From a virus (Duplodnaviria; Caudoviricetes), in the IMG/VR virus record IMGVR_UViG_3300044695_004869: a stretch of 64,000 nucleotides of DNA; one strand, 5' to 3'. Position numbers and translations under genes: made by a program. A model generated the notes under the pieces. The model had not been told where the DNA came from and made no database searches. It saw only the letters and a list, made by a program, of their open reading frames with translations. The stretch's first letter is position 1; each line of letters begins with the position of its first letter. This document shows positions 57,104-62,466 of the stretch, piece by piece.

Positions 57104-59167
57104 ATGATTGAATTTCAAGACGAAAACGAAAAAGGAAAAAAGAAACCAGAAAGTAGTGGGGGAACTCCTGTTTTGGATAACTTTAGTAAGGATTTAATTA
57201 AAATGGCAGAAGAAGGGAAATTAGATCCCGTAATCGGTCGTGAGAAAGAAATCCTACGAATTGCTCAAGTTTTATCAAGACGTAAAAAGAACAACCCTAT
57301 TATTATTGGTGAACCAGGAGCTGGTAAAACAGCTATTGTTGAGGGATTAGCAATGATGATCTATAACGGGGATTGTCCTAAAAATTTGGTTGATAAACGA
57401 ATTGTATCTTTGGATATTAATTCAATTGTTGCAGGTACCAAATATCGTGGTCAATTTGAAGAACGTATGAAAGTTATTATTGAAGAGTTACAAGCAAACC
57501 CAAATATTGTTATCTTTATTGATGAGATTCACACAATGGTTGGGGCCGGTAATAGTTCAGGATCTTTAGATGCTTCTAATATCTTCAAACCGGCGTTATC
57601 TCGTGGAGAAATTCAATGTGTCGGAGCAACAACTTTGGATGAATACCGAAGACATTTTGAAAAAGACGGAGCATTAGAGAGACGTTTCCAAAAAGTGATT
57701 GTAGATCCTTCTACCAAAGAGGAAACATTTGAAATCCTTAAACAAAGTAAATCTAAGTATGAGGAACATCACAAAGTTAATTATACTGACGAGGCTCTTT
57801 TGGTTTGTGTTGAACTAGCTGATCGTTATATTACGGATCGTGAATTCCCTGACAAAGCATTTGATATTTTGGATGAGGTTGGCGCAAGAATGCAAATTGA
57901 CATCAAGTTACCTGAAGTAATTGAGAAACTTAAAGTTGAAGCTCAAGACATTAAGAAAGAAAAACTTGAGGTAATTAAAAAACAAAATTACGAGCAAGCG
58001 GCTGAGTTACGCGATAAAGAACGTACCGTATTGGCTAACCTTGAGATGGAGAAGAAAAAATTTGAAGAGTATCTTAGAGTTAGTAAACGTAGTATTCCTG
58101 AAGAATTGATTTATGAAGTTGTTTCAAACATGACCAAAATTCCGGTTTCAAAATTAAACTTGGATGAGAAGAATACGTTGGTTAATTTGGAATCATCATT
58201 ATCATCTACAGTAATTGGTCAGGAAGAAGCGGTTATGAAAATCTCCAAATCTATCCGTAGAAATCGTGTAGGTATTAAGGACCCAAATCGTCCAATCGGA
58301 TCGTTCATTTTCTTAGGATCAACAGGTGTTGGTAAAACATTCTTGGCTAAACAATTGGCGAAAGAAATCTTTGGTAACGAAGAAAACTTAATCCGTGTTG
58401 ATATGTCTGAATACCAAGAGAAACACACGATCTCAAGATTAATTGGTTCTCCTCCAGGATATGTGGGTCACGAAGAAGGTGGACAACTTACCGAACAAGT
58501 GAAAAACAAACCTTACTCTGTTATCTTGTTTGATGAGATTGAGAAAGCAAACAAAGACATTTTCTCAACACTATTACAGATGTTGGATGATGGTCACTTA
58601 ACTGATGGTTTAGGTAGAAAAATTAACTTCAAAAATTGTCTAATCATTATGACATCTAACATTGGAGTTAAAAAACTACAGGACTTCGGTGCTGGTGTTG
58701 GTTTCAAAAGCAATAGTGATATTGTTAAAGAAGAACACAAACGAGATATCCTCAAAAAAGAATTAGGTAAGTTTTTCGCACCTGAATTCCTTAATCGTAT
58801 TGATGATGTTATTATCTTCAATTCTTTGAAAAAAGAGAACATTGATAAAATTGTTAAGTTGGAGATTGATCGTTTAATGAAACGATTGACCAAAATGAAA
58901 TACAACTTTACTTACGAACCAACGGTTATTGACTTGATCTCTAAAGTTGGGTTTGATGAAACGTTTGGAGCTCGCCCACTAAAAAGAGCACTACAAGATA
59001 AAGTTGAGGATCTAATCTCAGAAAAAATACTTCTTAATGAGGTTGTTGAGGGAACTGAATATATGTTATTAGTAAAAGACGGTGAGGAGATAGTAATTGA
59101 AACCCGTACGGTTCAAGAACCAAAGAAACGTGGTAGAAAGAAGAAAGAGGATCAACCCTCAATCTAA
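57104..59167 (+). CDS. clpC: ClpC-like Hsp100 AAA+ ATPase lacking the N-terminal Clp-repeat domain
   Basis: [25 protein letters not shown]-like [30 protein letters not shown] loop, [15 protein letters not shown]. Confidence 0.88.
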
Positions 59168-59170
59168 AAT

Positions 59171-59198
59171 AAAAAGGAAGAGAAATCTTCCTTTTTTT
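59171..59198 (+). terminator. Intrinsic terminator of clpC (potentially bidirectional)
   Basis: AAAAAGGAAGA-GAAA-TCTTCCTTTTTTT. Confidence 0.85.
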
Positions 59199-59207
59199 AT
59201 GCCCAAT

Positions 59208-59233
59208 AAAAAAGGGGGATTAAAAATCCCCCC
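59208..59233 (-). terminator. Intrinsic terminator of the peptidase gene
   Basis: A6 run then AGGGGGATT-aaa-AATCCCCCT on the + strand. Confidence 0.78.
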
Positions 59234-59257
59234 TAAAAACAAATAGAAAATTAAACA

Positions 59258-60043
59258 TTAATGTTTAGTATAACCAAGACCCTCTATCATTAGTTTACCA
59301 ACCTTAATTCCATTATATGTATCCTCAACCACAACGTATTCATTTGCGGTGTGATAACGATAATACCCTATTGATATATTAAAACATGGGATATTAAATA
59401 ACTGATTAACCATATAAATGTCTGTATATGGATGTTTGTGATACTTTGTGTCTGATGGAAAATGTTCGGTAATTAAACGACCCCCAACATTAAAGAATTC
59501 ACTATCACGATCAAACATTTGTCTATTCATAAGGAACTCTGAAATCATGTTGTTCTCAGGGGCATCAAATTGGATACCATACCCTACATTCTTAAAAAAC
59601 TCAGGATCTGCCTTTCTTGACCCATGACAACCTGTTTCTTCAGATACGAAAAATGCTGCCTTCAGGTTTGGTAATTCTTTTAACAATTCCAAACAACCGT
59701 ACACACCACATTTATCATCTCCACCAATACCTGTTGGGTCTCCTTCGTCATTATACGCTTTAAGAGATAATTTGATCTCTCCCTGAGCATTAGGTAACAT
59801 TTCCTCAACAACGTTAATTGTGTCGATCGTATGTACCGTATCGGTGTGAGCAATTACACACGGGAAGTATTCAATATCTTCATCGGTTTGTTTAGTTGCG
59901 TAGATGTTATACATCTCATCAACATAAAACGGAATATTGTTTTCGGTTAACCAATCAGCAATAAATTGGATCATCAAATCCTCTTTATATGTCTTTGTTG
60001 GTACGGACAATACTTCTTTTAGTAATTCATAGTTTCTTTCCAT
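59258..60043 (-). CDS. Zn-dependent exopeptidase (M20/M28/M42 clan)
   Basis: IAHTDTV, GIGGDDKCG, FFVSEETG, QFD, NISIGYY..HT; promoter TTG-N20-TACATTTG at 60048-60078. Confidence 0.8.
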   Translation of the reverse strand: MERNYELLKEVLSVPTKTYKEDLMIQFIADWLTENNIPFYVDEMYNIYATKQTDEDIEYFPCVIAHTDTVHTIDTINVVEEMLPNAQGEIKLSLKAYNDEGDPTGIGGDDKCGVYGCLELLKELPNLKAAFFVSEETGCHGSRKADPEFFKNVGYGIQFDAPENNMISEFLMNRQMFDRDSEFFNVGGRLITEHFPSDTKYHKHPYTDIYMVNQLFNIPCFNISIGYYRYHTANEYVVVEDTYNGIKVGKLMIEGLGYTKH

Positions 60044-60061
60044 AGCACAAATGTACGGAAA

Positions 60062-61481: not shown

Positions 61482-61535
61482 TTGGAATATTGTTTTTTTG
61501 TATTATCTTTGTATTTATAAATTAGTTCTTTAACA
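61482..61535 (+). promoter_or_regulatory. Bacteroidota-type promoter plus boxA leader of tmRNA
   Basis: TTG (61482)-N19-TATCTTTG (61504-61511), then GTTCTTTAACA (61525-61535), 3 nt before the tmRNA 5' end. Confidence 0.72.
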
Positions 61536-61538
61536 TAT

Positions 61539-61936
61539 GGGGGTAACTTGGAATCGACTGACATAGTTGGTTATTCGGGGCACGCAGTGAGAGGGTTCCT
61601 ATCACTTTAATCTATGGAGTCAACAATTAGACGGCAACGTTCTAGACAAAATGGCGGCAATCGGTCTTATCCGTGAAGACGCTGCGGTAGTAGCCTAACA
61701 GTTAGGAAACACCAATCGGGTCGGTGGACATACAACCTAGGAACAGAAGTCCCTACAAAGATGTGGTTTCTATCGTAAAAGGAATAAGTGGAGGATTAGT
61801 TCTCAGTAAAACGAACCACTTTAAAAATAAGGGAATTGTGAGATTTCGGAACATTAGATTAAATGTTGACCTAAGCGTGTAGTCCTTAGTAGTCAAGATG
61901 GACAACACGAGGGTTCGAATCCCTCTACCTCCACCA
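61539..61936 (+). ncRNA. ssrA: tmRNA (one-piece, 398 nt)
   Basis: 5' GGGGGTAACTTGGAATCGAC pairs with 3' TACCTCC-A-CCA including a G3-U wobble; T-arm GGGTTCGAATCCC; tag frame 61633-61698 encodes GNVLDKMAAIGLIREDAAVVA*; next to smpB. Confidence 0.95.
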
Positions 61937-61939
61937 ATT

Positions 61940-61967
61940 AAACCTCATCTAACGATGGGGTTTTTTT
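61940..61967 (+). terminator. tmRNA terminator
   Basis: AAACCTCATC-taac-GATGGGGTTT plus T tract. Confidence 0.8.
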
Positions 61968-62018
61968 ATGCGGTAAAATTATAGATTAGTGTTGTATGAT
62001 TATTATATTTTAGAGCAC

Positions 62019-62044
62019 AAAAAAAGAGGTATTAATTACCTCTT
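62019..62044 (-). terminator. smpB terminator overlapping its stop codon
   Basis: AAAGAGGTA-ttaat-TACCTCTTT with an A7 run on the + strand. Confidence 0.7.
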
Positions 62045-62466
62045 TTAATATCACGATCAATATCTCTTAATTTGATCGATTGTCGTTTATCGTAAAGTTT
62101 CTTACCACGAGCCAGAGCGATCTCAATTTTGATTAGATCCCTATCATTAAGGAATAAACGATAAGGAATTATTGTTAAACCATTTATTAACTGATTTTCC
62201 AAATTACGTAACTCTCTATTCTTAAGTAAGAGTTTACGATCTCTTATTGTTTCATGTGTTGACCCATATCCATAATCAGTTATATTCATACCTTTGATGT
62301 ATAGCTCCCCATTGTTAAAATAACAATACCCTTCAGAGATGGACGCTTTACCCATTCGGATCGCTTTCACTTCTGACCCCAAAAGTTTTATACCGGCAAT
62401 TTCTACCTGAATAAACTCATATTCAAATTTAGCCTTCTTGTTGATTATGTTTACAGATTTTTTCAT
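62032..62466 (-). CDS. smpB: SsrA-binding protein SmpB
   Basis: NKKAKFEY...AGIKLLGSEVKAIR, RDRKLLL, GLTIIP, KIEIALARGKKLYDKRQSIK.RD. Start moved to ATG 62466; TATATTTG at 62471-62478. Confidence 0.95.
   Translation of the reverse strand: MKKSVNIINKKAKFEYEFIQVEIAGIKLLGSEVKAIRMGKASISEGYCYFNNGELYIKGMNITDYGYGSTHETIRDRKLLLKNRELRNLENQLINGLTIIPYRLFLNDRDLIKIEIALARGKKLYDKRQSIKLRDIDRDIKRGN

Follow-up and report, generated by a model that had tools for sequence, protein, structure and literature searches.

What might a phage do with a transfer-messenger RNA (tmRNA), an SmpB protein, a ClpC-like unfoldase and a peptidase that are encoded side by side? The question is raised by a 64-kb stretch of viral DNA (Caudoviricetes; IMG/VR record IMGVR_UViG_3300044695_004869), hereafter the window, in which these four genes occupy positions 57104-62466 (5363 bases). 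An earlier interpretation, made from the sequence alone, had joined them into one pipeline that tags stalled peptides, unfolds them into host ClpP and recycles their amino acids. All four genes are indeed present where this sequence-only reading had placed them, inside 5.4 kb, together with two features that it had not mentioned, an open reading frame (ORF500) between the peptidase and tmRNA genes and a GOLLD RNA past SmpB. To our knowledge, nobody has shown what role tmRNA or SmpB plays for a phage, and in bacteria the genes for tmRNA, SmpB and Clp proteins do not normally form a cluster like this one. As described below, the gene block is real and conserved, and its function as one pathway is plausible but less likely than not; we lean slightly towards seeing in it two neighbouring units that were inherited together.

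The phage origin of the window is borne out by genes for a T4-type portal (47028-48929), a gp23-type major capsid protein (41044-42924), the large terminase (TerL; 49837-51600) and an S77 prohead protease (44788-45525). Among its IMG/VR relatives are complete or near-complete genomes, 282-321 kb in size and in two cases with direct terminal repeats, which identifies the window as part of a jumbo T4-like phage; the source phage is roughly 300 kb in size and comes from a lake. The phage collection that was searched contains no cultured relative, and the best DNA match of the window is to an uncultured 634-kb phage (72% over 650 nt). The nearest cellular homologues of its ClpC-like protein stem almost exclusively from Bacteroidota (Flavobacteriales, Cytophagales, Saprospiraceae and others; 54-60% identity), which, together with TAnnTTTG motifs before several genes, makes a freshwater member of the Bacteroidota the probable host.

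Conserved gene order and variable SmpB

Related loci were collected from two sides, 58 of them via SmpB and, via ClpC, at least 599 IMG/VR stretches, of which the best 80 were analysed. They belong to one lineage with the common order tRNA array, GOLLD, (SmpB), tmRNA, ORF500, peptidase, ClpC, nucleotidyltransferase, three open reading frames and TerL, in which the succession of ClpC, peptidase, tmRNA and GOLLD is kept in essentially every relative with enough sequence. Linkage in relatives, which the sequence-only reading had named as a check on its proposal, is thus observed for ClpC, peptidase and tmRNA, but the unrelated flanks, from the nucleotidyltransferase to TerL, are equally collinear and SmpB is variable. 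The synteny therefore reflects descent from one ancestor, not selection for the four genes.

The variability of SmpB is pronounced. At this site the gene is found in 5 of the 48 ClpC-anchored loci that reach the full tmRNA; in most relatives GOLLD follows directly after the tmRNA, at 0.15-3.5 kb, with no SmpB between, and in a locus whose ClpC is 91% identical (L073) the gap measures only 160 nt. No SmpB was found anywhere in the genomes G006 (291 kb, 99% complete) and G007 (304 kb, complete), and in a third relative (321 kb, complete) the gene lies about 100 kb away. The tags of the SmpB-less relatives, which account for 52 of the 80 tmRNAs described below, are intact, and these phages presumably use the SmpB of their host. 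SmpB is accessory and stands outside the conserved block; as a fixed part of a module, the role in which it had first been cast, it is dispensable.

A comparable variability is seen for ClpP. A true ClpP of 244 residues is encoded in G001 (complete) and G002 (96% complete), far from the block, and scores 218 bits against the ClpP equivalog model versus 58 against the head-maturation model; both genomes also have SmpB at the site. None was found in G006, G007 and G008, two of them complete and one 99% complete, so that among these five genomes SmpB at the site goes together with ClpP in 2 of 2 cases as against 0 of 3. The idea of host ClpP as the general partner of the phage unfoldase does not hold across the lineage, as G001 and G002, unlike the other three, supply their own. 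In two distant records (L057 and L029), a ClpP-like gene situated 2 kb from SmpB was considered as an independent link between Clp proteolysis and trans-translation; it yields a partial ClpP match of 188 residues and is followed by an open reading frame of 426 residues, an arrangement typical of prohead protease and capsid genes, and was not counted for that reason.

Some relatives show local rearrangements, in which 2.6-4.5 kb of DNA have been inserted between peptidase and ClpC or the peptidase has been replaced by an inverted form of 343-346 residues, together with the loss of ORF500. Ten open reading frames inserted either between peptidase and ClpC or between tmRNA and GOLLD include one resembling GIY-YIG/NUMOD3 homing endonucleases and one with a sub-threshold SLT match, and no gene related to translation or proteolysis. 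The homing-endonuclease-like gene lies between tmRNA and GOLLD in L116 (7623-8282). In L071, which derives from the same record as L018 (211653-215162), the insertion between peptidase and ClpC carries duplicated 3' fragments of ClpC (residues ~505-678) and peptidase (~213-261); these duplications look like the scar of a mobile insertion between the two convergent genes.

A long, lineage-specific tmRNA tag

The tmRNA is a one-piece molecule of 398 nt (61539-61936, + strand) which matches the Rfam model RF00023 over its full length (1-374) with 77.4 bits against a gathering threshold of 47 (E 2.5e-28). Its acceptor stem pairs 5' GGGGGUA with 3' UACCUCC, followed by A-CCA with the CCA encoded, and contains a G3:U wobble, which predicts alanine identity. 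As for the pseudoknots PK1-PK4, posterior probabilities are low in the central part of the Rfam alignment, and many positions there are marked as non-canonical. The tag reading frame (61633-61698, + strand) comprises 21 codons, GNVLDKMAAIGLIREDAAVVA, from the resume codon GGC at 61633 to the stop codon TAA at 61696-61698. The sequence UUAGAC precedes the frame GGC...GCC UAA, at the position where E. coli has UAGUC before the resume codon, and the encoded tag ends in VVA.

As ARAGORN called no tmRNA in the window, the Rfam model and an nhmmer profile were used in its place, the latter yielding 79 further tmRNAs from related loci (L002-L151) and thus, with that of the window, a family of 80. All 80 have an intact tag frame of 21-22 codons, encoding 39 distinct peptides of the pattern G-[NDEK]-[VITL]-[LIFY]-x-[KN]-[ML]-x-x-[IVLA]-G-L-[IVLT]-[RKA]-...-A, with the endings TVA, VVA, NVA, AVA, SVA and VTA, nearly all of the form (V/T/N/A/S)-V-A. 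Conserved residues of the tag are encoded with synonymous changes (for example Arg as CGT, CGC or AGA and Leu as TTA or CTT). The four Bacteroidota genomes with the nearest ClpC homologues have tags of nine residues: GENNYALAA, GENNYAMAA, GDNRFALAA and DNTSYRLAA. The conservation of the long tag, its synonymous changes and its dissimilarity to the Bacteroidota tags thus argue that it is private to the lineage and under selection at the peptide level.

ARAGORN recognises 6 of the 80 family members. In L007/L008, L026 and L142 it reports the same 21-residue frame with the same resume position, and in L023/L024 a shorter tag of 8 residues from a later start. Rfam, applied at its gathering threshold, also misses the tmRNAs of L005 and L011. 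With more than 90% of this family missed by ARAGORN, surveys that depend on it have probably under-counted phage tmRNAs; the program was used both where tmRNAs were found in 2.3% of cultured phage genomes (PMC9004378) and where huge phages were found to carry tmRNA and SmpB (PMC7162821). The latter work agrees with the statement of the sequence-only reading that huge phages carry these genes.

Seen against bacterial trans-translation, the phage system is alike in its one-piece, alanine-identity tmRNA with resume codon, tag frame and stop, in an SmpB with a basic C-terminal tail, in a tag that likewise ends in hydrophobic residues and alanine, and in a nearby Clp unfoldase with a ClpP-docking loop. 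It differs in the length and ending of the tag, which has 21 residues and closes on VVA whereas bacterial ssrA tags have about 9-10 and close on LAA, in that the unfoldase beside the tmRNA is a virus-encoded ClpC without N-terminal domain rather than ClpX or ClpA, and in that no SspB-like adaptor was found in the phage case. Bacterial ssrA tags are degraded by ClpXP or ClpAP and in Mycoplasma by Lon, and the long ssrA tags of Mycoplasma go along with this switch of protease.

A ClpC-like unfoldase without N-terminal domain

The gene at 57104-59167 (+ strand) encodes a class-I AAA+ unfoldase of 687 residues, assigned by Pfam, PHROG and alignment to ClpC structures. The Pfam matches comprise AAA (PF00004), AAA_lid_9 (PF17871), UVR (PF02151), AAA_2 (PF07724) and ClpB_D2-small (PF10431), and the protein accordingly has the two AAA+ modules and the short M-domain with UVR motif that mark the ClpC type. 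It aligns colinearly with residues 153-802 of Staphylococcus aureus ClpC (E 2e-215), and in the alignments with the S. aureus and Bacillus subtilis proteins, which cover the full length of the phage protein, the match begins only at their residue ~145-153. About 145-175 N-terminal residues are missing: Pfam detects no Clp_N domain in the protein, and there is no coding frame upstream of 57104 that could hold one. Because of this missing domain we refer to the protein as ClpC-like and not as canonical ClpC. The structures of S. aureus ClpC (6em8) and of the B. subtilis ClpC-MecA complex (3j3u) show the same AAA+ rings, the same short UVR M-domain and the counterpart of the VGF loop described below, and the position of F436 in S. 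aureus ClpC is aromatic in the phage protein too (Y296). What sets the phage form apart from the ClpC proteins of Firmicutes, Actinobacteria and Bacteroidota is the absence of the whole N-terminal domain; Flavobacterium olei ClpC (848 residues), the only Bacteroidota homologue checked, has it. The homologues point to Bacteroidota as the donor lineage of the phage gene. Phage ClpC-like ATPases as such already have a PHROG family (phrog_4871).

The loop by which such unfoldases dock on ClpP, (I/L/V)-G-(F/L) in the second AAA+ module, is present as G-V-G-F at residues ~531-534, opposite the AGF of S. aureus ClpC, and G529, G531, G533 and F534 are invariant across 9 phage ClpC homologues. With both ATPase rings, the M-domain and the docking loop kept, the protein should therefore feed ClpP, be it that of the host or, in some relatives, that of the phage, and its predicted part as a ClpP-feeding unfoldase stands well with the intact VGF loop. 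The N-terminal domain of ClpC is the binding site for MecA, McsB, ClpS and phosphoarginine. Its loss need not impair the handling of tagged proteins, as ClpC1 deprived of the domain equals the wild type in unfolding an SsrA-tagged protein, and a ClpA without it degrades ssrA-GFP, free of control by ClpS (PMC6274998).

The neighbour of ClpC in all relatives is a Pol-beta-type nucleotidyltransferase (56003-56737, - strand; PF01909 weak, phrog_36119 at 2e-39), for which searches of the PDB and NCBIfam returned no solved or curated relative.

A catalytic-domain-only peptidase and ORF500

The gene at 59258-60043 (- strand) encodes a protein of 261 residues that belongs to peptidase clan MH (M20/PepT-like) and consists of the di-zinc catalytic domain only, as judged from phrog_4191 (2.5e-33), a marginal match to Pfam M20 (25.3 bits against a cut-off of 24.6) and a structural model. 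The AlphaFold2 model (pLDDT 87, pTM 0.90) retrieves with Foldseek PepT 3gb0 as the best match (E 7.6e-14, TMq 0.80), followed by M42 peptidases and the catalytic domain of DapE. Residues 67-168 and 332-358 of PepT align piecewise with the phage protein and ~169-331 are skipped; in line with this, the lid/dimerisation domain of the M20 family is absent from its 261 residues, and the target-normalised TM-score is only 0.57. The set of di-zinc ligands (H, D, E, D/E, H) and the catalytic Glu is complete, and H66, D109, E135, E136, D160 and H231 are invariant in 11 homologues. By sequence and predicted fold, the label of exopeptidase given to this gene before thus appears fair at the level of the family. 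The lid/dimerisation domain of M20 peptidases shapes their substrate specificity. The phage protein shares the clan MH fold, the full set of ligands and the catalytic Glu with PepT (M20B) and the M42 TET aminopeptidases, but differs from PepT and M20 in lacking that domain.

Next to ClpC in relatives (L009, L086, L093-L096, L098, L099, L101, L102, L104, L113 and L148), the peptidase occurs in two forms, the one of 261 residues, encoded on the strand opposite to ClpC and accompanied by ORF500, and another of 343-346 residues (45-49% identity) with an acidic C-terminal extension of ~85 residues, encoded on the ClpC strand. Where the longer form occurs, ORF500 is absent and another open reading frame of ~380 residues stands in its place.

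ORF500 itself, an acidic, lineage-specific protein of 465-500 residues (60062-61459/61564, - strand), lies inside the supposed module, between peptidase and tmRNA. Translation probably begins at Met36 (61459), in which case a 26-nt overlap with the tmRNA gene disappears. No match was found in Pfam, PHROG or NCBIfam and no fold match in the PDB. The protein evolves fast (20-68% identity among 22 homologues), and its AlphaFold2 model has a pLDDT of 80, with residues 1-38 disordered. The notion of a MecA-like adaptor for ClpC, prompted by an Atlas feature score of 0.80, was dismissed as unsupported: this score is at noise level, Pfam detects neither MecA nor any other family in the 22 homologues, and no MecA is among the fold matches, of which the best reach E 0.07 with Foldseek and Z 5.5 with VIA-align (helical noise).

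SmpB and the stable-RNA island

SmpB (62032-62466, - strand) has 144 residues from the ATG at 62466 and is identified by PF01668 (2.4e-44, 151 bits against 27) and by both NCBIfam equivalog models, NF003843 (150.4 bits against a cut-off of 130) and TIGR00086 (149.2 against 119.1); the basic C-terminal tail GKKLYDKRQSIKLRDIDRDIKRGN (GKKLYDKR...) is present. Past it lies a full-length GOLLD RNA (62552-62963, - strand; RF02032, 331.4 bits against 150), and in most relatives a tRNA array follows 4-8 kb further. The occurrence of GOLLD beside tRNA clusters has been described before (PMC6582537), and the rescue genes of huge phages (PMC7162821) and cultured phages (PMC9004378) are likewise situated among translation genes and tRNA arrays. 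In contrast to these, the tmRNA of the present case is one of a large family in which the long tag is conserved, and it occupies a fixed block together with ClpC and peptidase.

In the most divergent member of the lineage (L026, 9506-10450), smpB (49% identity) and the tmRNA share one strand, so that smpB is inverted relative to the window, and no GOLLD was found in the locus. This suggests that smpB was placed or replaced independently at the same site.

Other huge-phage lineages

Does the link between ClpC and tmRNA extend beyond the home lineage? LR745206.1 (634 kb) encodes a ClpC of 701 residues without N-terminal domain at 423 kb, its SmpB gene lies at 333 kb, and no tmRNA scores above threshold; in LR756508.1 (484 kb), such a ClpC of 657 residues is encoded at 455 kb and a tmRNA at 92 kb, with no SmpB found. 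The distance from ClpC to tmRNA or SmpB thus amounts to 90-360 kb in these two lineages, and neither has a peptidase beside ClpC. Likewise, more than 40 kb separate SmpB from the ClpC homologue in each of the IMG/VR records from which L029 and L057 derive; these homologues are open frames of 714 and 711 residues, respectively, with ~56% identity. In distant SmpB-bearing phages, finally, SmpB is found in or near tRNA arrays with no ClpC close by. Linkage outside the home lineage is contradicted by LR745206.1 and LR756508.1, where ClpC is unlinked from tmRNA and SmpB. Therefore, judging from the distant placements, the recurrent association is that of SmpB and tmRNA with the tRNA or stable-RNA island, and the link of ClpC to tmRNA arose once.

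ClpC proteins of 657-714 residues lacking the N-terminal domain, 49-58% identical, occur in unrelated huge phages of 260-640 kb (L241, 11884-13989; L242, 11980-13953; L068; L069). The truncated ClpC thus seems to be a general phage type.

Physiological role

What can be concluded about the role of the block? The view that it comprises two neighbouring units of a jumbo T4-like Bacteroidota phage, inherited together, strikes us as somewhat more probable than its negation. One unit would be the edge of a stable-RNA island (tRNA array, GOLLD and tmRNA), with an accessory smpB slotted, in this genome, between GOLLD and tmRNA. Its alanine-identity tmRNA, assisted by SmpB of phage or host, would enter stalled ribosomes and free them, appending the phage-lineage-specific tag (A)GNVLDKMAAIGLIREDAAVVA to the unfinished chains. 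The other unit would be a proteolysis pair, made up of the ClpC without N-terminal domain and the lid-less PepT-like di-zinc exopeptidase, in which the former docks on whichever ClpP is there, that of the host or, in some relatives, that of the phage. Both the degradation of the tagged chains as such and the protease that would carry it out are inferred. A hand-over of the tag to the phage ClpC fits the adjacency, but the data do not demand it, and we regard it as doubtful; recognition of the tag by this ClpC, recycling of amino acids and a role in counter-defence are pure conjecture. Speculation along these lines is not new, as earlier papers on phage tmRNA and SmpB also considered tagging for degradation as a means to recycle amino acids (PMC7162821; PMC9004378). 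Two observations sit uneasily with separate units that merely descended together. ClpC, peptidase and tmRNA stay adjacent despite the local rearrangements, which could reflect selection for linkage rather than mere descent, and the 64-kb window encodes no ClpP.

The same adjacency of three genes, preserved through several rearrangements, is an argument for a more integrated alternative, a tag-and-destroy pipeline private to the phage, along the lines of the sequence-only reading, which we consider possible though rather unlikely. The long tag would serve in it as an orthogonal degron read directly by the truncated ClpC, which would deliver tagged chains to ClpP, and the exopeptidase would finish the resulting peptides, the whole freeing ribosomes that have stalled on cleaved mRNA of host or phage and recycling amino acids. 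It would account for a tag that is far from those of Bacteroidota and conserved in 80 of 80 tmRNAs, for a ClpC that keeps the ClpP loop and lacks the very domain by which adaptors redirect specificity, and for the addition of a ClpP and SmpB of their own in some relatives; unfoldases of this truncated ClpC/ClpA type do act on ssrA tags in vitro (PMC6274998). However, the evidence for linkage comes entirely from one lineage whose unrelated flanks are just as collinear. LR745206.1 and LR756508.1 keep their truncated ClpC at least 90 kb from SmpB or tmRNA and have no peptidase by it, the L029 and L057 records place ClpC more than 40 kb from SmpB, ClpP is far from the block where present, and no adaptor was found, the MecA lead of ORF500 having failed. 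That most relatives lack SmpB and many lack ClpP means that no self-contained pathway is conserved, which would suit a tmRNA serving mainly for ribosome release or for a non-proteolytic use of the appended peptide, such as sorting or inactivation, next to a ClpC-peptidase pair with an unrelated job in host-protein turnover or assembly. The truncated ClpC of other huge phages, which has no tmRNA nearby, and a tag that is long, partly amphipathic and unlike known ClpX or ClpA degrons point the same way. Yet the tag retains a hydrophobic C-terminus ending in Ala, like tags for proteolysis, and the adjacency persists in all relatives, so that we judge this explanation improbable. As to functionless passengers from the host in the course of decay, the Bacteroidota origin of ClpC and its missing domain might have hinted at them, but no reading frame is broken, homologues of 45-95% identity share invariant catalytic and docking residues, all 80 tmRNAs preserve the tag frame, and at least 599 IMG/VR stretches carry the ClpC. 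These conservation data already contradict such decay, to which we attach hardly any probability.

What is already known comprises phage tmRNA and SmpB, phage ClpC-like ATPases and GOLLD by tRNA clusters; what is new is so in degree, namely a long tag that is private to the lineage and found throughout it, a fixed block that includes a truncated ClpC and a lid-less PepT-like peptidase, and a tmRNA family that surveys relying on ARAGORN miss. Tentatively, and with more doubt than belief, one may see here an orthogonal degron system of a very large lineage of Bacteroidota jumbo phages, in which the tag is poorly read by the ClpXP/SspB of the host and read directly by an adaptor-free ClpC, and in which SmpB and ClpP would be optional add-ons. 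If so, the phage would have its own channel to clear stalled ribosomes and destroy their products, for example after the action of host nuclease defences or phage-induced mRNA decay. Should ClpC indeed read the tag, this would be the first private degradation channel encoded by a virus and a ready-made orthogonal degron-protease pair for Bacteroidota. With a conserved tag unlike that of the host, a truncated ClpC beside the tmRNA and natural variation in SmpB and ClpP, the lineage offers a clean, testable case.

Expression signals and other features of the window

The sequence-only reading had assigned each of the four genes its own terminator and its own host-type promoter. Terminator-like hairpins indeed follow all four: a symmetrical hairpin flanked by an A-run and a T-run, and thus terminator-like in both directions, lies right after the ClpC stop codon (59171-59196), a G+C-rich hairpin with T-run after the peptidase gene (59212-59234, - strand), a hairpin with T-run right after the CCA of the tmRNA (61940-61963, + strand), and another one overlapping the smpB stop codon (62022-62046, - strand). 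The region contains 11 such sites against 3.7 +/- 2.0 in shuffled sequences, an enrichment that favours a terminator for each gene. The promoter claim fared less evenly. Perfect copies of TAnnTTTG, the -7 motif of Bacteroidota, stand before three of the genes, TACATTTG 4 nt before the peptidase ATG (60048-60055, - strand), TATCTTTG 27 nt upstream of the mature 5' end of the tmRNA (61504-61511, + strand) and TATATTTG 4 nt before the smpB ATG (62471-62478, - strand), but the only candidate for ClpC, TACCTTTA, has one mismatch. Sigma-70-like promoters are not enriched in the region (21 sites against 31.6 in shuffled sequences), and neither is TAnnTTTG window-wide (101 copies against 104 expected), for which reason the copies in front of the genes constitute weak evidence for promoters.

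Elsewhere in the window, a run of ~27 co-directional open reading frames (13449-40012, + strand) has a G+C content of 0.26-0.31 between flanks of 0.33-0.48. Positions 1-4901 contain overlapping, very long open frames of 1633 (- strand) and 1187 residues (+ strand) with a G+C content of 0.44-0.48 and strong skews, which suggests a compositionally biased or repetitive giant gene.

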